64,000 nucleotides of DNA from assembly GCA_050692175.1 (NCBI GenBank), contig JBOGTG010000103.1:1363-65362 (forward strand), in the 5' to 3' direction. Positions 45,084 through 54,283 of this stretch are shown here, piece after piece (the first letter of the stretch is position 1; each line of letters opens with the position of its first letter). Both the position numbers and the translations under genes were made by a program. The notes below the pieces were generated by a model that worked only from the letters and a program-made list of their open reading frames with translations, was not told where the DNA came from and did no database searches. Source of the DNA: Candidatus Limnocylindria bacterium. GTDB taxonomy: Bacteria > Chloroflexota > Limnocylindria > P2-11E.

Positions 45084-45308
45084 CTAGTCGATGCGCTTGG
45101 GAGCGGCACCTCGTCGTGGAAGACGCTGAAGTGAGCCCGGGGGTGGAGTCTCGGTCCTCATCGGCACGTGGTGGTATTGGTGCTCTGCGATCTCGTGCTC
45201 GGTGCGTTTCGCGCTCGCCTCGAGGAGCGATGGATAGGAGTCGCCCCTCTCGACGGAGAAGCGCACATCGCAACCACCGTATCTGCACGGGAAGCCACCG
45301 TAGCGCAC
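45084..45308 (-). CDS. Small C-X4-C-X24-H-X4-H zinc-finger-like protein (paralog A)
   Basis: GGFPCRYGGCDVRF..SLLEASAKRTEHEIAEHQYHHV. GTG start. Paralog of 52440..52742. Confidence 0.5.
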   Translation of the reverse strand: MRYGGFPCRYGGCDVRFSVERGDSYPSLLEASAKRTEHEIAEHQYHHVPMRTETPPPGSLQRLPRRGAAPKRID

Positions 45309-45366
45309 CGGTACGCACGATAGCTGACCACAGCCCGCAGGTCTCTACCTTGCAGCCGCAAGAGTC

Positions 45367-47040
45367 GTGACAGCTCTGGCGGAGCGCGCGCAGCTCATCG
45401 CGTCTCTGGCCGACCGCCGCGCCGCACTCGTGCGCCAAGACGAAGCCGGCGGAGCGAAGGATCGCGCGCGTCAGCTTCGCGATCACGTCCGGGCCTACGT
45501 TCTGCCGCGCGTGACGGCGCTCGAGGCGCCGCTGCTCGTCGTCCTCCTCGGTCCCACCGGTGCTGGTAAATCGACGCTGATGAACACGCTGGCTCGGGCG
45601 ACCGTGAGCCGCACCGGCGTCCTTCGGCCGACGACGAGGGAGGCGGTGCTTCTGGCCACCGACGCCGACGCCGCAACGCTGCGACGCGGCGCCCTGGCCG
45701 GCATCGACGCGGGACGGATCGTCCGCGCGCCGGCGGCGACCGCATCGGCGGGTCTCGCTCTCGTCGACGCGCCGGACCTCGATTCCGTCGAGCGGGCGAA
45801 CAGGGTCATCGCGGACGCGCTCGTCGAGGCTGCGGACCTCGGCATCTTCGTCACATCGGCGACGCGTTATGCGGACAGGGTCCCGTTCGACGTGGTGCAG
45901 CGCATCGCCGCCCGCGGCCTTCCCGTCCTGATCGTGGTGAATCGCATGCCGCCGGATGAGTCCGAGCAGCGCGTCGTCCTCGAGGACCTCCGTCGAGTTC
46001 TAAAGGACACCGCGCTCCGGGGGATCGACGACGCGCGCGTTCAGATGGTGGGCGTCGCCGAGGGGCGTCTCGACACTTCAGGCGAACGCCTCGAGCTCGA
46101 CGCGGCGGCGCCGGTGCTCCAGCGGGTGGACGAGCTCGCCGCCGATCGCGAGCGACGGCTCGCGCTCGCACGCCGCGCGCTCGAGGGCGCGCTCGCCGGC
46201 CTCGACCCGCTCCTGGAGAGCGTCGCCGCCGACGTCGAGCACGGCGCGGCCGAAGGCGAGACGCTCCGCGCCATCGCGGCGAGGGCCTACGACGCCGAGC
46301 TCGCGGCGCTCTTCGAAGAGCTCCGCGGCGGGACGTTCCTCCGCACCGAGGTGCTGCGGCACTGGGAGTCCTACGTGAAGGCCGACCAGATCACGCGCTT
46401 CTTTTCGCGCGGGCTCGGCCGGATCCGCGGGACGATCGTGGCCGCGCTCCGGGGCATGCCGGAGGCTCCGATCGGCGTCGTCGAGAAAGAGGTCACGAGC
46501 GACGTCATCGCCGTCGCGGTCGCACGCGCGACCGAAGCCGCGCGCCGCGTCGCGAGCGCATGGTCCAGCCGTGCGGGCCCCGCGGAGCAGCTCGCCCGAG
46601 ACCCCGCGCTCTGGTCGGCATCGCCGGATCTCGCGTCGCGCGTGCAGCCGCGGCTACGCGATTGGGTCGCGAGCATCGCGACCGACGTGCAGGCACGCGG
46701 TGCCGGAAAGCGCAACCTCGCGTTCGGCGTGTCGCTCGGCGTGAACGCACTCACCGTCGCCGCGATGGTCGGCGTCTTCGCGCACACCGCGGGCGTGACC
46801 GGCACCGAGCTCGGCATCGTCGCGGCAACCGGATTCCTGAATCAAAAGCTGATGCAGGCGATCTTTGGAGAGGCCGCGATGAGGGAGATGATCGCGAACG
46901 CACGCGAGCGCCTCGAAACGCTGCTCGGTGACGAGTTCTCGACGGAACGCTCGCGTTACGACCGCCTGACCGCGGATCCCGTCGAGCTGCGCACGCTCGC
47001 CCAAGAGATGCGCGCCGCGATGGCGCCGCTCGCCGCGTGA
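45367..47040 (+). CDS. Dynamin-like/large membrane-associated GTPase, subunit 1
   Basis: P-loop GPTGAGKST, VDAPDLDS, VVNRMP in place of NKxD, long helical stalk, hydrophobic paddle near the C-terminus. Confidence 0.78.
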   Translation: MTALAERAQLIASLADRRAALVRQDEAGGAKDRARQLRDHVRAYVLPRVTALEAPLLVVLLGPTGAGKSTLMNTLARATVSRTGVLRPTTREAVLLATDADAATLRRGALAGIDAGRIVRAPAATASAGLALVDAPDLDSVERANRVIADALVEAADLGIFVTSATRYADRVPFDVVQRIAARGLPVLIVVNRMPPDESEQRVVLEDLRRVLKDTALRGIDDARVQMVGVAEGRLDTSGERLELDAAAPVLQRVDELAADRERRLALARRALEGALAGLDPLLESVAADVEHGAAEGETLRAIAARAYDAELAALFEELRGGTFLRTEVLRHWESYVKADQITRFFSRGLGRIRGTIVAALRGMPEAPIGVVEKEVTSDVIAVAVARATEAARRVASAWSSRAGPAEQLARDPALWSASPDLASRVQPRLRDWVASIATDVQARGAGKRNLAFGVSLGVNALTVAAMVGVFAHTAGVTGTELGIVAATGFLNQKLMQAIFGEAAMREMIANARERLETLLGDEFSTERSRYDRLTADPVELRTLAQEMRAAMAPLAA

Positions 47041-48647
47041 CGCTCTCCGGGAGCCTCGCCGCACTCGACGACGCGGTCGACGCAGCGGGAACGCTCGGCC
47101 TCGACACCGTTCGCGCCCGGCGCGTCCTCGGCGACGCGCGCCAGCGACTCGGCTTCGAAGGATCCGCATACGTGCTCGCTCTGGTCGGCGGCACCGGAGT
47201 CGGCAAGTCGAGTCTCCTGAACGCTCTCGCCGGGGGCGTCGTGAGTCCCGCGAGCGCCCGGCGTCCTACGACCGACATGCCCGTCGCCTGGGTCGCGGAG
47301 AGCGCGCGAGAGGAGACCGCACCGCTCCTACGGTGGCTCGGCGTACGCGAAGTGCGGGATCACAGGAACGTCGCGTTTGCCGACGTCGCGATCCTGGACC
47401 TTCCCGACGTCGACTCGACCACGCCCGAGCATCGCGCGCGCGTCGACGAGCTGCTTCCCCGCGTCGATGCGGTGGTGTGGGTCGCAGATCCCGAGAAATA
47501 CCGCGACGCGGTGCTCCACGACGACTACCTACGGCACTGGGTGCCGCGCCTCGCCCGTCAGATCGTCGTGTTGAACAAGGCGGACCGCATCGGCCCCGAC
47601 GCCGAACGTGTGCGCGACCACCTTGCCGCCAGCCTTCGCGCGGAGGGGATCGAGAACGTGAAGGTCGCGGTCACGAGCGCAGCCAGCGGCGGCGACGCGC
47701 GCGAGCTGCGCGACTGGATCATCGATGGCGCCGACGCGAAGCGCGTCATGACCGAACGGATCGCGGCTGAGCTCCACGAGGCCGCGCTCGATCTGGCGAC
47801 GCGCGCCGGCGTCGTTACTGACGCGGAGCCGCTCATCACCGCTGAACGGCGGGCGCGCGCGCTGGCCGATGTGACACGGGAAGCCGCGAGCATCGTAGAT
47901 CTCGCCGGGCTCGAGCGTCAGGCGGTCGCCGCGACGCGGCTTGCGGCTCGTCCACGCGGCGCGGGTCCGTTCGGGCCCGTCACCGCATTCCTCTATCGCG
48001 CGACAGGCCGCGACCGGGTGGTCGCTGATCCGGAAGGGTATCTGCGAAGGTGGCGCGAGCGCGGCAGCCTCGCCCGGCCGGCCGAACCGATCCGGATCCT
48101 CGTCGAGGACCTCCTGCCCCGCGTCCCACCAGAGATTCGAGGCGCGATCGCGTCGCTCATCGATGCCGAAGCCCTCCGGGCGCGGCTCGCCGGCGCCATC
48201 GATGCCGCCGTCGCGACCCGCACAGCCGACGTTCGTGCGCCAACGAGCTTCGTGTGGTCCGTCATCGGCGCGCTTCAGTACGTCGTGACGGCGGGCCTGG
48301 TCTTCACGGGACTCTGGGTCGCGGCCGTCTTCTTCCTTCATGCACCTTTCGCGAGCGTCGATGTGCCGATCCTCGGGCCAATCCCAATTCCGCTCGTCGT
48401 TCTCGCAGGGCTCCTGCTCGCCGGCTATCTGCTGGCGCGTCTTCTCGGCACGCATGCCGGCATGCTCGGGAGACGATGGGCCCGCCGCTTGCGCGGCGAT
48501 CTCATGCGCGAGCTCGAGACGCGACTTGGTGATGTGTTATTCGCGCGAATCGACACCATCGACGCTGCGCGCGCGCGGATCGCGCGTGCGCGCTCGACGA
48601 TCGAGACGCTCGGGCATCCGGGTCTCGCCACTTCGTCTTCCTCGTGA
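47037..48647 (+). CDS. Dynamin-like/large membrane-associated GTPase, subunit 2 (two C-terminal TM segments)
   Basis: GGTGVGKSS, LDLPDVDS and VLNKAD motifs. Two C-terminal TM helices. The GTG start overlaps the upstream stop (GTGA). Confidence 0.78.
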   Translation: MTLSGSLAALDDAVDAAGTLGLDTVRARRVLGDARQRLGFEGSAYVLALVGGTGVGKSSLLNALAGGVVSPASARRPTTDMPVAWVAESAREETAPLLRWLGVREVRDHRNVAFADVAILDLPDVDSTTPEHRARVDELLPRVDAVVWVADPEKYRDAVLHDDYLRHWVPRLARQIVVLNKADRIGPDAERVRDHLAASLRAEGIENVKVAVTSAASGGDARELRDWIIDGADAKRVMTERIAAELHEAALDLATRAGVVTDAEPLITAERRARALADVTREAASIVDLAGLERQAVAATRLAARPRGAGPFGPVTAFLYRATGRDRVVADPEGYLRRWRERGSLARPAEPIRILVEDLLPRVPPEIRGAIASLIDAEALRARLAGAIDAAVATRTADVRAPTSFVWSVIGALQYVVTAGLVFTGLWVAAVFFLHAPFASVDVPILGPIPIPLVVLAGLLLAGYLLARLLGTHAGMLGRRWARRLRGDLMRELETRLGDVLFARIDTIDAARARIARARSTIETLGHPGLATSSSS

Positions 48648-48768
48648 CGAAGGCAAACCGGCGTGCGCGCTCCTTCTATAAGCGCCATCGCTACTCGCAC
48701 GTCGGCGATCTCCCCGGATTCGCGCGCCCGTGGATCGCCGAGACGCTCTACCTGAAGAGCTGGCGTAC

Positions 48769-49923
48769 CTAGTTACGCGAGCCCACCGGGCGCGTCGACG
48801 CGACATGCAGCCCGGTCAACACGACCGCCATCGCGACCAGGCACGGACCTAGTACGGCGACATCGATCCATTGCATGAGCACACCGACAGCTGCGGGAAG
48901 CGTCGCTCCGCCGATCATTCCGGCCGCCACTTGGTAGCCGATCGCCCGTGGCGCCGCCGCGCTCCCGATGCGGCGGGGCGTGAGATAAAGAAGGACCGGT
49001 ACGAAAACCGACAGCGCAGCGCCGAGCAACGGGAGCGCGACCAGGGCGGCGAGCGGTGGAGGCAAAACCCAGAAGCCAAGGGCGCTCGCGAGGGTGCCGA
49101 AGACGCTCAGGTCGAACAGGTGTGGCGTCGGAACGCGATCGCCGTATGCGGCTAGCGCCACGCGGCCGGCGGCAAGAGCCGACCAAAAGAGAAAGACGGC
49201 GAGTCCGGCGAGGCCGACGCCGAGCGAGCCGTCCACGGTGAAGCGGGTGTACGTCCACTGCCCCGCCCCAAGCTCGACCCCGACGTACACGAACATCAGC
49301 GCGCACCCGAGGATCACCGTCCGGCCGATGCTTCGCTCTCCCGTCGCGTCGGCCTCGAGCTCGGGTGCGGCGCTGAGATCCGAGCGGACCGCGTACGTGG
49401 CCACGCCGAGCAATGCGAACGCTGCGGCAGCCACGAAATACGTGGGGCGCCACGAGTCGCTTACAACAAGCGTGGCTCCTACGAGTGGAGGACCGAGAGA
49501 TGCTCCGATTGCCCACGCCCCGTGCAGCGCACCCATGAAGCGGATGTCGCCGCGAAGAGCGGCCTCGGTATTTGCCGCGGCGTCCAGCAACCCGAGGCCG
49601 CAGCCGAGGACGGCGGAGGCGAGGATCGTCGCCCACCAGCCGCTTGCGATCGCGAAGATGGCGAGACCTCCAGCGGCCGCGCCGACGGACGCCAGGAGGA
49701 GCGCGATCGTCCCGAGACGCTCGCGCAGGAGGCCGCTGGCGGCGCTGGCCGCGAACTGCGCGACCGTCATCGCGGCGACGAGCAGGCCGAGTCCCGCGAA
49801 AGGCGCATCGAGCGACGCGCGCATCGAGGGCCAGGCGATGCCAAGCATTCCCGTCGGCAGTCCCAGGAACACGAGGCCGATGAACGCGATCGCCGCGGCA
49901 CGCCGACGAACGCGCACGTTCAA
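48769..49923 (-). CDS. MFS transporter
   Basis: 384 aa with about 12 hydrophobic segments. Confidence 0.8.
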   Translation of the reverse strand: MNVRVRRRAAAIAFIGLVFLGLPTGMLGIAWPSMRASLDAPFAGLGLLVAAMTVAQFAASAASGLLRERLGTIALLLASVGAAAGGLAIFAIASGWWATILASAVLGCGLGLLDAAANTEAALRGDIRFMGALHGAWAIGASLGPPLVGATLVVSDSWRPTYFVAAAAFALLGVATYAVRSDLSAAPELEADATGERSIGRTVILGCALMFVYVGVELGAGQWTYTRFTVDGSLGVGLAGLAVFLFWSALAAGRVALAAYGDRVPTPHLFDLSVFGTLASALGFWVLPPPLAALVALPLLGAALSVFVPVLLYLTPRRIGSAAAPRAIGYQVAAGMIGGATLPAAVGVLMQWIDVAVLGPCLVAMAVVLTGLHVASTRPVGSRN

Positions 49924-49955
49924 GAGGCTACGAGAATCGGCTGGCGTGCGAGGAT

Positions 49956-50204
49956 TTGAGAATGTCGTTGCTTCGCCGCCTCGCTCTCTTCGCCGTCATC
50001 TCGATCTTCACGCTCGGGCTCGGTCTACTGACGCTGTTCGATGGAATCGAGATGCTCCTGGCGTCAGCGGGCTACGCGGGGAACGATCGGACCGCGCTGC
50101 TCGGGCTCGGAGCGCTCACGACGGCGGGCGCGCTCGTGCCTATCGCACTCTGGGCACTTGCTGGATGGGCGATTTTCGTCAGGCGTCAGCGCTGGGAGTG
50201 GTGA
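49956..50204 (+). CDS. Small membrane protein (3 TM)
   Basis: 82 aa and hydrophobic. No homology recognised. Confidence 0.4.
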   Translation: MRMSLLRRLALFAVISIFTLGLGLLTLFDGIEMLLASAGYAGNDRTALLGLGALTTAGALVPIALWALAGWAIFVRRQRWEW

Positions 50205-50205
50205 G

Positions 50206-52362
50206 TCACTGGCTCGGGATCGTCCAGTCGACGGGCACGATGTGGATCCAGGTCTGGCCCGGCGACAGGCGCACGGCTTCCCCGTTCAAGTTCCGGAGGG
50301 TGAATACGTCGAAGATGTCGGGGCGCGTCCAGATCACGTCCTGGCGCTTCCCGTCGCGGAACACCGAGCCGACGCCGGTCCCGATGAGGGTCATGTCCAG
50401 CTTGGGGTTGCCGGCCGGATCGAGTCCGAATTCCGTCGTGAAGTGGACCTGTGTCTGGATGACGACGATGTTCCTGGCGGCGACGACTTCGCGCGTCGCG
50501 CCGTCGACCTCGCGAACGCCGGCCTGGAAGCGGGCGTAGCTGCGCGAGGCCGGGTCGTACCGATAACCGACCTCGAACCCCGCGCGGTATGGGACCGTGA
50601 TCCCGGTCGCGTCGATGCTCCCGGTCATACCGCCCGCGAGGGGATCTGTCGCCGTGGGCGGCAGGAAGTCCCACGAAGGGATGCTCACCGGCTGATCGCC
50701 GTCCGGCGCCGCAGCCAGGGAATCGCGCACGTTCCCGTACGTCGTGAAGTAGTTGTAGGGCCCGGGACGGAACCCGACCCGATAGCCCCAGCCGTACGAG
50801 GGCGCGAGATCGATGTACCGATATGTGACGAACGCGTCGTAGTGGATGCGCATGAGCTCCTCGGGGCCGCCACCTGAATAGACGAACGCGCCAGCGAGGC
50901 TCGGGATGATCGGCGCGTCGGTCATGCGCGCGCTCCGCACTGACCCAATGACGTCCGGGTCTTTGGATTGGTAGACCGCGGCGAGGCGCGTGGTGAGCCC
51001 TTCGACAAGCCACTCGTACACCTGATCGGCTTGCGCGATCCCGTAATGGGGGCGGGCCGTCGGGTTGTTGTCGATCTTCACGTAAAGCGGTCGCTTCGAG
51101 GCCGATCCCCCGGCGAGCGGCATCCCAGTGAGCGGCCACCGCGGGCACACGGTCGCCTCGGATGTGGACGTCACCCTGAACGCGCCGCCCATGTTGCGTA
51201 GGACGTTGCTATGCACCTGGACGCCGTCGGCCGGGGCGATTGCATCCGCGTCGATCTTGCGGTCGCCGTTCCAGTCGCCTAGGAGTACCGCGGTGGCACC
51301 GGCGCACGCCGAGCCCGCGGGCAGCGTGGCCCAGCCCGCGAAACCGTTGGCCGGCCGGAAGGAGCTGCTGGAGTCGAACACCTGCACGTTCGCGCTGCCG
51401 TCGGCGTCGCCGTACACCGCGACGAGGTCGTCCTTCGAATCGCCCGTCACGTCTGCGGCGCCGATCGATGCTCGGCCGAGGTCGTACTCGCCCTCGTTCG
51501 TTTCGTACATGTTGTTCGTGAGGACGAGGCCACTCGGGGCTGGATCGAACAGGAGCAGCCGCGCCCTCGCTTTGGGCGCCTGGTACAGCGCGGCGAGCTG
51601 GTCAGCGCCGCTCGTGCGCGTGAACCGACCGACGGCGAAGCGCGCGAGCGAAAGGTCGAACTGCGCGGTGCCCGAGTCGTACGCGCCCTGAGTGCCGCCG
51701 AATGTGAAGGCCGACCCTGTCGACTCGAAATAGTGGATGCGCATCTGGAGACCGTCGTACTGGTACGCAACGAGAACGGCGGTGCGACTGTTTCCGGAGA
51801 AACTCCCTGCGAGGACGGCTCGCGCACGACTCCACGTGTAGCCCTCGCTGCCCCACCACTTCTCGGGCGAGCTGAAGCTGGACCCAGTCGAACGGAAGAC
51901 GAGCAGCGCCGACCTGTTCTCGCTCTCGTCGTAGAGCGCCACGAGGTCGTCCTTCCCGTCAGCCGTGAGGTCGGCGATCGCGAACTTCGCGCGGTTCATC
52001 CGGAAAGTGTTCGCGCCGGTCGTGAGCCACACCGACTCCGAGAATGAGTCGCCGTCGGTGCTCGGCTCGCGCAGGGTGATGCGAAGACTCGCGTCGCCCG
52101 TCGGATCCCCGAGCAGCGCGATCTGCGATTTGCCGTTGCCTTTGAAGTCTCCGCTGGCCGCGAGGCCCGCGCCCACTGGGCTGACCGAGCGGGCGAATCT
52201 GGGTGGCGGGAGTGGTGTCGGCGTCGGCGAGGGAGACGCCTGCGCCTGTTCGGTGGGCGTCGACGTGGGCGGGGTCGACGCGGTGCAGGCGATGAGGGCT
52301 ACGGTCGCGAGTGCGAGCGCTCGCGCAGTGCCGGCTGGACGATGAAGCAACCCGCTTCGCAT
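50206..52362 (-). CDS. Lipoprotein with N-terminal FG-GAP/VCBS-like repeats and a C-terminal DUF3048 domain
   Basis: Lipobox LIACTAS. Repeats of the form ..DLTADGKDDLVALY.., ..DVTGDSKDDLVAVY.., ..GDWNGDRKID... The C-terminus PLTG..RPLYVKIDNNPTARPHYGIAQADQVYEWLVEGLTTRLAAVY..SVRSAR is typical of DUF3048. The start is set at ATG 52362. Confidence 0.75.
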   Translation of the reverse strand: MRSGLLHRPAGTARALALATVALIACTASTPPTSTPTEQAQASPSPTPTPLPPPRFARSVSPVGAGLAASGDFKGNGKSQIALLGDPTGDASLRITLREPSTDGDSFSESVWLTTGANTFRMNRAKFAIADLTADGKDDLVALYDESENRSALLVFRSTGSSFSSPEKWWGSEGYTWSRARAVLAGSFSGNSRTAVLVAYQYDGLQMRIHYFESTGSAFTFGGTQGAYDSGTAQFDLSLARFAVGRFTRTSGADQLAALYQAPKARARLLLFDPAPSGLVLTNNMYETNEGEYDLGRASIGAADVTGDSKDDLVAVYGDADGSANVQVFDSSSSFRPANGFAGWATLPAGSACAGATAVLLGDWNGDRKIDADAIAPADGVQVHSNVLRNMGGAFRVTSTSEATVCPRWPLTGMPLAGGSASKRPLYVKIDNNPTARPHYGIAQADQVYEWLVEGLTTRLAAVYQSKDPDVIGSVRSARMTDAPIIPSLAGAFVYSGGGPEELMRIHYDAFVTYRYIDLAPSYGWGYRVGFRPGPYNYFTTYGNVRDSLAAAPDGDQPVSIPSWDFLPPTATDPLAGGMTGSIDATGITVPYRAGFEVGYRYDPASRSYARFQAGVREVDGATREVVAARNIVVIQTQVHFTTEFGLDPAGNPKLDMTLIGTGVGSVFRDGKRQDVIWTRPDIFDVFTLRNLNGEAVRLSPGQTWIHIVPVDWTIPSQ

Positions 52363-52439
52363 GATGCGGCACGGCGCACGCTCTGTGCCAGCAGACTTGT
52401 GACCAACGGCGAACTCGCCCGCCGGTCGAACAACCAGTT

Positions 52440-52742
52440 CTAGGAAGTCGTGCGCTTCGGTACGAATCGCACCGCGGTCTGTAGACCGCGAGGGTGCTCC
52501 TCCAAACGGACGTGCTGGTAGTTGTGAACGGCGACCTCGTGCTGTGTGCGCAGGAGGCTCGCGGCTGTCAATGCCGGCATCGAGCCCTGGATGCTCACGA
52601 CGAAACACTCACGGCATCCGACGAACCGGCAGGGGAATCCACCTGATCTCACGCGGCCCGCCCTTTCTGGCCGACAAGCGGCCCGCGTCGACATCAAGCG
52701 TACAGCGAAATTGGAGCAATGCGAGTAGCAGATGCGGGCCAC
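52440..52742 (-). CDS. Small C-X4-C-X24-H-X4-H zinc-finger-like protein (paralog B)
   Basis: GGFPCRFVGCRECF..ASLLRTQHEVAVHNYQHV. The start is either 52742 or ATG 52694. It lies 77 nt upstream of the lipoprotein gene. Confidence 0.5.
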   Translation of the reverse strand: MARICYSHCSNFAVRLMSTRAACRPERAGRVRSGGFPCRFVGCRECFVVSIQGSMPALTAASLLRTQHEVAVHNYQHVRLEEHPRGLQTAVRFVPKRTTS

Positions 52743-52800: not shown

Positions 52801-52828
52801 CGGGCCGCAATACGCGGCCCGCTTTTTT
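52801..52828 (+). terminator. Canonical intrinsic-terminator-like hairpin plus T6 in the helicase leader
   Basis: CGGGCCGC-AATAC-GCGGCCCG (8 bp, all G:C) is followed by C and TTTTTT (52823-52828). No + strand gene lies upstream within 2.5 kb. The SD (GGAAGGA) and TTG 52856 follow. Confidence 0.5.
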
Positions 52829-52855: not shown

Positions 52856-54064
52856 TTGATCACTCTTGCTCCAGACCTTGACCGTGCCACGCAAGACCTC
52901 GGTTGGACGAACCTCACGCCGATCCAGGACCTTGTGATTCCGCACCTTCGTGACGGGCGCGATCTCTTCGCGCAGGCGCAGACCGGCACCGGAAAGACGG
53001 GCGCCTTCGCGCTCCCGATCCTCGAGCGGATCGACGGCCGGCCCTCGGCACCATTCGCGCTCGTGATCGTGCCGACGCGGGAGCTCTGCGCGCAGGTCGC
53101 CGCCGAGTTCCAGGCGCTGGGGCGCCACCGCTCTGCCCGAGTCGTCGCGCTTTACGGCGGCGTTGGCTACCGCGATCAGGAGGTTGCGCTGCGCCGTGGC
53201 GCTCACGTCGCTGTCGCAACGCCGGGTCGCTTGCTCGACCTCGTGGCGCGTCGAACCTGCAACCTCTCCAAGGTTCGAGTCCTGATCCTCGATGAGGCGG
53301 ATCGCCTCCTCGACCTCGGCTTCGCGCCCGACATCGCGAGGATCGTGGCGCTCGTGCCGGCCGCCCGCCAGACGGCGCTTTTCTCAGCGACGCTCACGGC
53401 GGACGTCAAAGCGATCGCGCAGCGTTACACGAAGAACCCCGCGACGGTCGCGGTGAAACCCGAGACGCCGACCGTGGATTCGATCGATCAGGCGTGGATC
53501 GAGGTACGCGAGGTTGACAAGGTCGGCGCTCTCCACGAGCTCCTCGGTCGGTCCGGCGTGGAGCGCACGCTCGTGTTCCGCAGGACGAAGTACGGCGCCG
53601 ACAAGCTCGTAAAGGCGCTCGACCGGCTCGGCCGGCCGGCCCGCGCTCTCCACGGGAACGTCGGTCAGCGCGAGCGCGAGCGCGTACTCGACGGGTTCCG
53701 CCGCGGGAAATTCCCGACGCTCGTAGCGACCAACCTCGCGGCGCGTGGCATCCACGTCGATGACATCGGTCACGTCGTGAACTACGACCTTCCCGAGAAC
53801 GCCGACACCTACGTCCACCGCGTCGGACGGACGGGACGAGCCGGCCGGCGCGGCATCGCGTACACCTTCGTGAACGAGACGCAGCGCAAGGACTTCGAAG
53901 ACATCCGCCGACTGGCCAAGGTGCCGTTCCGGCGGGAGCGGCTGACCCTTCCGGCGACGGCCGCGCTGAGGACCGCGAGCGCCGGATCGCCGACGGCGCC
54001 CGGCCGCCGAATGGCGCACACTCGACGGTGGGCATCAACCCGACGGGCAAGGGGGCAGATCTAG
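52856..54064 (+). CDS. DEAD-box ATP-dependent RNA helicase
   Basis: Q-motif context LTPIQ, AQTGTGKT, PTRELC, LDEAD, SAT, HGN..Q..R and HRVGRTGRAG. The start is uncertain: TTG 52856 is preferred over track ATG 52793, which would place the terminator hairpin inside the CDS. Confidence 0.88.
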   Translation: MITLAPDLDRATQDLGWTNLTPIQDLVIPHLRDGRDLFAQAQTGTGKTGAFALPILERIDGRPSAPFALVIVPTRELCAQVAAEFQALGRHRSARVVALYGGVGYRDQEVALRRGAHVAVATPGRLLDLVARRTCNLSKVRVLILDEADRLLDLGFAPDIARIVALVPAARQTALFSATLTADVKAIAQRYTKNPATVAVKPETPTVDSIDQAWIEVREVDKVGALHELLGRSGVERTLVFRRTKYGADKLVKALDRLGRPARALHGNVGQRERERVLDGFRRGKFPTLVATNLAARGIHVDDIGHVVNYDLPENADTYVHRVGRTGRAGRRGIAYTFVNETQRKDFEDIRRLAKVPFRRERLTLPATAALRTASAGSPTAPGRRMAHTRRWASTRRARGQI

Positions 54065-54283
54065 GTGGGACGAAAGAAGCGAGTCGGCTTCGCCGACCTA
54101 CAGGCGACCCACGCCGAGCTCGATCGGGGCGAGCTTCGCTGTCCGGAGTGCAAGCGGAGCGTGGCTGAGGCGGACGGTCTCAGGTTCGTTCCGGCGCTCG
54201 GGCAGACCGAGTCGTCGCTGGCGACGCTCAGCTGCCCGCGCTGCCGCACGATGATCAGCATTCGCTTCGTCGCCGCGCACTAG
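54065..54283 (+). CDS. Small four-Cys zinc-ribbon protein
   Basis: CPECK...CPRC. The GTG start lies immediately after the helicase TAG. Confidence 0.45.
   Translation: MGRKKRVGFADLQATHAELDRGELRCPECKRSVAEADGLRFVPALGQTESSLATLSCPRCRTMISIRFVAAH

Follow-up and report, generated by a model that had tools for sequence, protein, structure and literature searches.

Three paralogous small genes in one Limnocylindria genome

The DNA analysed here (the window) is a stretch of 64,000 nucleotides with 68% G+C, taken from a 2.7-Mb metagenome-assembled genome (G000) of a Candidatus Limnocylindria bacterium. The Limnocylindria are an abundant, uncultured soil lineage. On its minus strand the window carries two small genes, referred to as paralogues A and B, which both encode zinc-finger-like proteins. 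Paralogue A (45084..45308, GTG start at 45308) codes for 74 amino acids (MRYGGFPCRYGGC...HEIAEHQYHH...) ending in a basic tail, and paralogue B (52440..52652, GTG start at 52652) for 70 amino acids (MRSGGFPCRFVGC...HEVAVHNYQH...). A third copy, paralogue C, is located on a separate contig (G000:C118:4326-4571) and has one extra codon between its two cysteines. A and B are 45-48% identical (BLASTP 45%, E = 9e-17), which is far above chance, and their cores align without gaps, both displaying the pattern C-x4-C-x24-H-x4-H and one further histidine. An earlier reading of the window (the original prediction) had reported two small paralogous open reading frames (ORFs) here, alignable without gaps, identical at about half of their positions and alike in Cys/His spacing; both ORFs are present on the minus strand, and their relationship is as described.

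For B, the original prediction had given the coordinates 52440-52742. An ORF of this extent exists, encoding 100 residues, and is the maximal one; judging from the alignments, however, the true start of B is the conserved GTG at 52652, which yields a protein of 70 amino acids (MRSGGFPCRF...). This assignment is based on three observations. First, all paralogues and orthologues open with M/V-R/K-x-x-G-[FL]-P-C-R. Second, the translation upstream of this codon is not conserved as protein and third, the window has a frame-breaking 1-nt indel upstream compared to its relatives. The start codon itself is kept in 11 orthologues. Orthologues of A in the genus are 85-97% identical; a second comparison within the genus gave 93-97%, on par with the best-conserved flanking gene at the locus. 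A conserved TATCGT is found 7 nt upstream of the GTG start of A, suggesting that the A mRNA may be leaderless; a sigma-70 promoter scan gave no consensus match near A or B.

Differences among orthologues are distributed over codon positions 1/2/3 as 375/143/1560 for A, 294/118/1302 for B and 209/244/943 for C, and synonymous codon differences exceed non-synonymous ones ~2- to 4.5-fold in all three orthologue groups. As the orthologues differ mostly at third positions, A and B are coding genes under purifying selection.

A conserved family of Cys2His2-type mini-proteins

We built a profile from the three paralogues and searched it against 1.84 billion representative proteins, which retrieved 126 clusters at E <= 1e-3, 48 of them at E <= 1e-10. 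All 126 clusters consist of small proteins of 45-182 amino acids. In an alignment of 77 diverse members, residues G5, C8, R9, C13, R35, H38, E39 and H43 are invariant, and at least 90% of the sequences share A31, Y45 and H47. Consequently, H38-x4-H43 is found in every aligned member and H43-x3-H47 in ~90%. Homologues and conservation of the Cys/His positions had been named as a check in the original prediction, and the 126 clusters with C8, C13, H38 and H43 unchanged across 77 members bear it out.

A, B and each of the 77 aligned members were scanned against Pfam, NCBIfam and PHROG, which returned nothing significant, only weak CE4-type matches (see below), and a sequence-profile search of the PDB likewise gave nothing significant. 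The same applies to a Foldseek search of the predicted structure against PDB and BFVD. A and B thus belong to no named family, in line with the original prediction, which could not place them in one. In public records, family members are named "hypothetical protein", and we found no description of the family in the literature. Many public entries (P0046, P0051, P0057, P0164-P0177 and P0193) represent A- and C-type genes that gene callers started, as they often do, at an internal GTG or ATG; these entries are 56-60 amino acids long and do not contain the Cys-x4-Cys knuckle. Such miscalled starts probably help explain why the family stayed unrecognised. Judged from sequence comparison, A, B and C are genuine genes of an unnamed, lineage-restricted and conserved family of Cys2His2-type mini-proteins of ~70-80 residues.

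Orthologues are found in 36 of 61 related genomes. Among these 61, the protein family is present in every sampled genus of f1, the taxonomic family to which the window belongs, with 1-4 copies per genome. It was also detected in a single genome of f2, another family of that order, whereas all 22 genomes representing three further families of the class lack it. When a spread of 401 genomes from across the Chloroflexota was searched, true matches were restricted to f1 genomes; two further marginal matches turned out to be CE4 polysaccharide deacetylases. The cellular members are thus confined to one order of Candidatus Limnocylindria. Members of a distant subfamily (P0091 and P0134) reside on phage-like metagenome contigs, which show runs of small same-strand genes along with HNH, RusA, Mom-like and tail-fibre-like genes. 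The two distant genes (L116 6001-6234 and L117 5502-5762) encode a tail of the ...GRSTL type; one of them lies among small early-type genes, and the other overlaps the start of a 1032-amino-acid collagen/pectate-lyase-like tail-fibre candidate. A tblastn search against 50,697 phage genomes produced no match, and we reject a phage origin of the cellular copies despite these two distant relatives.

To describe the architecture of the proteins, we ran AlphaFold2 with the 77-sequence alignment. The model has a mean predicted local distance difference test (pLDDT) score of 84 and displays two short strands (residues 6-7 and 16-17), a helix spanning residues 25-43 and a tail devoid of secondary structure. 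Accordingly drawn, the proteins would consist of a 48-residue core that opens with the Cys-x4-Cys knuckle on a β-hairpin and continues into a long helix ending in R-x-x-H-E-x3-H-x-Y-x-H, followed by a basic tail of 20-30 residues that is predicted to be unstructured and that each orthologue group has in a version of its own. The tails contain 5-7 K+R as opposed to 2-3 D+E, and are kept within each orthologue group and different between groups (the tail of C, for instance, reads ...RRRGRRRKEEELNVI). Most likely, the two cysteines and two of the histidines hold one structural zinc ion. C8, C13, H38 and H43 are the predicted ligands because they are invariant, with H47 as a possible alternative. 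Two considerations point to different histidine pairs: H38/H43 is favoured by its invariance even in members lacking H47, while H43/H47 is favoured by the analogy to CE4 enzymes discussed below.

The predicted β-hairpin followed by a helix agrees with the layout reminiscent of C2H2 fingers that had been noted originally. Like the classical TFIIIA-type C2H2 fingers (Pfam zf-C2H2), which feature an aromatic-x-C-x2-5-C-x3-aromatic knuckle, the family has F6-P-C8-x4-C13-x3-F17 and a predicted β-hairpin plus helix topology with two histidines (H-x3-5-H) on the C-terminal part of the helix. In contrast to them, the Cys-to-His spacer comprises 24 residues (C13-H38; 29 to H43) instead of 12, the predicted helix is ~19 residues long, G, R, R and E are invariant as well and a third histidine nearly so, and one domain plus the basic tail makes up the whole protein. 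No Pfam profile matched A or B; the best zf-C2H2 hit was TFIIIA_zf-C2H2 with E = 0.11 for one of the 77 members, and TFIIIA in the PDB scored E = 1.8. The β-β-α arrangement of the model had no significant match to a solved zinc finger in Foldseek. Bacteria rarely have Cys2His2 fingers, and those that do occur are poorly understood.

A bacterial Cys2His2 zinc-binding domain, as predicted for our family, is present in Ros/MucR, where C-x2-C-x9-H-x3-4-H is embedded in a protein of ~140 residues with an oligomerisation domain (PMC9779718). Spacing and length of our family differ from it, and no member matched the ROS_MUCR profile. The zinc-ribbon/treble-clef proteins of the zf_Tbcl type (PF13451/PF23477) resemble the family in being small, in having a zinc site and in their recurrent DEAD-box/cold-shock protein (Csp) neighbourhood, and zf_Tbcl genes even adjoin family members at two loci (L091 and L023). 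Their sequence, however, is unrelated, and they adopt a four-Cys treble-clef fold.

The family also resembles the metal site of CE4 deacetylases. Seven to ten of the 77 members gave weak matches to Polysacc_deac_1, DUF2334 or TIGR03006, the whole-domain CE4 score staying far under the cut-off (12.9 vs 23.1 bits), and a JGI entry for a family fragment is named PgdA/CDA1-family deacetylase. Residues S24-P49 of A (SYPSLLEASAKRTEHEIAEHQYHHVP) can be aligned, for instance, to AYPSLIEEIASEGHEVACHGYRHVP from a CE4 enzyme of the Chloroflexota. Comparing the family with CE4 alignments in hhalign yielded a probability of 50% with four sequences and of 89-90% (P = 2e-6) over 34-57 columns with a broader CE4 set; allowing for the ~25,000 families scanned, this profile match is borderline. 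The similarity centres on CE4 (NodB) motif 2, H-[ST]-x-x-H preceded by G-H-E, to which the family's R-x-x-H-E-x3-H-[GQND]-Y-x-H corresponds such that the two metal-binding histidines of CE4 are matched by H43 and H47. Beyond this motif the two differ. A family protein has 70 residues as compared to a (β/α)-barrel of ~200 or more, it ends ~25 residues past motif 2, and its N-terminal Cys knuckle, which nothing precedes, has no CE4 counterpart. It also lacks motifs 1 (TFDD), 3 (RxPY), 4 (DxxDW) and 5 (LxH) and is therefore not a deacetylase. The likeness could stem from a CE4 fragment as ancestor or from convergent evolution of a helix-HxxxH metal site, two origins that are indistinguishable here.

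Genomic neighbourhoods of the family

Downstream of the B/helicase intergenic region, the plus strand of the window encodes a DEAD-box RNA helicase (52856..54064, start approximate), divergent from B. It is directly abutted, with no intergenic gap, by a gene for a 72-amino-acid double-CxxC zinc ribbon with a basic N-terminus (GRKKR; 54065..54283, plus strand). This zinc ribbon has no Pfam family, and its relatives are found in f1 only, not in f2. In other genera and in f2, a family member comes straight after the helicase gene on its strand, and in other genera the zinc-ribbon gene directly follows a family member. Clustering the neighbours of 104 family loci, we observed that only the DEAD-box helicase and this zinc ribbon recur across several groups of the small proteins. 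At four loci (L085, L103, L104 and L091) a helicase gene, a family member and a gene for the zinc ribbon or a zf_Tbcl protein follow each other on the same strand, spaced by 0-38 nt. The member of the f2 genome (G037) begins 6 nt after its helicase gene, and in three further genomes (G029, G035 and G036) a family member is followed by the zinc ribbon. Less often, members are overlapped or abutted by genes for cold-shock-domain proteins (two loci, L098 and L101) or for BipA (one group, L064/L065), all confirmed by Pfam. Helicase- or Csp-linked members occur in at least three separate places of the weakly resolved family tree. The only detectable cold-shock-domain gene of the window's genome lies at window position ~812-1015 on the plus strand (G000:C103:2174-2377), 44 kb from A. 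In another genome of the genus (G003), the helicase is missing at the locus, and B and the 72-amino-acid zinc-ribbon gene are directly divergent (L139, G003:C29 13571-14188).

Within the genus, A and B invariably share a strand. B is divergent from the helicase gene and upstream of a DUF3048 lipoprotein gene, and A invariably converges with an epimerase gene and diverges from two GTPase genes. In the window, these GTPase genes are two overlapping dynamin-like/MMR_HSR1 genes (45367..48647, plus strand), separated from A by 58 nt, a gap correctly given in the original prediction. The FG-GAP and DUF3048 lipoprotein gene (50206..52362, minus strand) is situated downstream of B on the same strand, its start 77 nt away from B. 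We consider both as neighbours only; the linkage extends to the genus for the GTPases and to a close species cluster for the lipoprotein.

The original prediction had pictured A and B as possible regulators of the envelope or membrane-remodelling genes that they flank. This finds no support in the comparison of genomes. The A-B distance grows from 7.4 kb in the window to 10 kb (G021), 11.9 kb (G003) and 13.3 kb (G005), and genes of the interval are inserted or missing: the larger intervals contain an ABC-transporter cluster, a gene for a secreted protein of 600 amino acids or other genes in varying combinations. At one locus of a more distant relative with a 65% identical A (L047), the GTPase genes are located 4 kb from A with the epimerase gene still adjacent. 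The recurrent partners of the B lineage across genera and in f2 are the DEAD-box helicase and the 72-amino-acid zinc ribbon instead of DUF3048 genes. Judging from the variable distance and content of the interval and from L047, the "bracketed module" is genus-level synteny and not a fixed unit, and we favour the view that regulating the GTPase, MFS and DUF3048 genes between them is not the dedicated task of A and B.

The intergenic region between B and the helicase gene is conserved in the genus and represents a shared divergent control region with two structured elements. The first is a GC-rich hairpin in the 5' leader of B (52640..52700, minus strand), which ends at the B start codon and encloses a Shine-Dalgarno-like AGAAAGG. 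The minimum free energy of a 91-nt stretch amounts to ~-39 kcal/mol, and the hairpin is kept in nine genus relatives, where changes remain G-U pairs on the B sense strand; it could gate B translation. The second is a terminator-like hairpin of eight G-C pairs followed by a T-run in the helicase leader (52801..52828, plus strand). Here, one relative (L090) displays a fully compensatory C-G to T-A change, and a change in another (L095) pairs as G-U on the plus strand only. No similar terminator-like leader precedes the genome's single csp gene, its second DEAD-box gene or bipA, and we thus rejected a common cold-shock leader. At the locus of paralogue C, a GC-rich, structured-looking stretch separates dnaX from C (L003 1300-1450, G000:C118). 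As signal recognition particle (SRP) RNA often precedes dnaX, this stretch might be SRP RNA.

Possible roles of the small proteins

The nucleic-acid-binding role that the original prediction had suggested appears plausible to us. Based on synteny and the basic tails, we tentatively favour an RNA- or helicase-associated role, without rating it as an even chance, and rank it above transcription regulators, pure protein adaptors and zinc/redox or mobile-element roles. In such a scheme, the proteins would be nucleic-acid-binding, probably RNA-binding, accessory factors that would work with the RNA-remodelling/cold-adaptation machinery, i.e., the DEAD-box helicase, the 72-amino-acid zinc ribbon, cold-shock proteins and BipA. 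The tails would direct the various paralogues to different partners.

Several observations weigh against this assignment. The zinc-finger cores are near neutral and the basic charge is confined to the tails, and neither sequence nor predicted structure matched a known RNA- or DNA-binding domain significantly (PDB, Pfam, and Foldseek against PDB and BFVD). The family tree lacks the resolution needed to put the duplications in order, and part of the helicase linkage may therefore be one inherited arrangement. Moreover, four genomes of the same genus (G009, G010, G014 and G019) have no family member beside the helicase, and many paralogue groups adjoin unrelated genes, namely those for the epimerase and GTPases, an isopropylmalate-synthase-like protein, H+-pyrophosphatase, glutamine synthetase or a HAD hydrolase.

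We regard it as unlikely that the proteins are sequence-specific DNA-binding regulators of their neighbours, along the lines of the original prediction; A would then control the two GTPase genes divergent from it, and B the lipoprotein unit, the helicase or both. The C2H2-like pattern and predicted topology would suit such regulators, as would the N-terminal F-P-C-x4-C-x3-F with its weak resemblance to TFIIIA fingers (E = 1.8 in the PDB, 0.11 in Pfam), and within the genus both A and B sit in short, conserved divergent control regions. However, one 48-residue finger that lacks a dimerisation element offers little ground for assuming site-specific DNA binding. The neighbours are wholly different between paralogue groups, the A-B interval varies, and A keeps its epimerase neighbour where the GTPase genes have moved 4 kb off. 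The operon-type coupling to helicase, zinc ribbon, Csp and BipA, with gaps of -43 to 38 nt, is also more typical of functional partners than of regulators and the genes they control.

Rather improbable, in our judgement, are protein-binding zinc modules that do not touch nucleic acid and whose group-specific tails dock partners as adaptors, inhibitors or assembly factors. The tails are indeed conserved within and divergent between orthologue groups, the near invariance of A within the genus fits a tight interaction surface, and one of the distant relatives on a phage-like contig is placed directly upstream of a tail-fibre-like gene. Against this, no partner can be named, and the basic tails together with the invariant Arg9 and Arg35 suit nucleic acid binding equally well.

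An evolutionary scenario built on the favoured RNA- or helicase-associated role would have the family arise by exaptation of the strand-helix-HExxxHxYxH segment of a CE4 enzyme, with the new Cys-x4-Cys knuckle replacing the missing Asp ligand. The proteins would then have diversified to 1-4 paralogues per genome, spread to phages and become RNA-binding cofactors of the cold-adaptation machinery (DEAD-box helicase, 72-amino-acid zinc ribbon, Csp and BipA). Taken as a whole, this chain of events strikes us as doubtful.

Small proteins for zinc buffering, zinc sensing or redox sensing, or domesticated mobile-element (phage) genes without a housekeeping role, seem quite improbable. Several Cys/His-rich paralogues per genome and the distant homologues on phage-like contigs with HNH, RusA and Mom-like genes speak for them; yet each protein is predicted to have one metal site only, the search of the 50,697 phage genomes was empty, and the cellular copies occupy stable chromosomal positions under strong purifying selection with no flanking mobile genes. 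Finally, although A and B are each located within or close to the 5' region of a plus-strand gene and short ORFs arise by chance in DNA of 68% G+C, the view that the A/B similarity marks a non-coding repeat or RNA element and not proteins is effectively refuted by the codon-position pattern, and the in-frame indel, the invariant Cys/His residues, the 126-cluster family and an Rfam scan of the window without a match argue in the same direction.

Taken together, our analysis delineates a family that is well defined, strongly conserved and multi-copy, yet absent from every curated family library. These findings leave textbook biology unchanged, the function being one that we infer. The likeness to the CE4 metal site makes it possible to test, on a specific example, whether a mini-protein was built from the metal-binding segment of an enzyme. 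If the link to helicase and cold-shock genes is true, the family would represent a new type of small RNA-handling cofactor and would add to the cases in which tiny zinc proteins are encoded next to DEAD-box and Csp genes.

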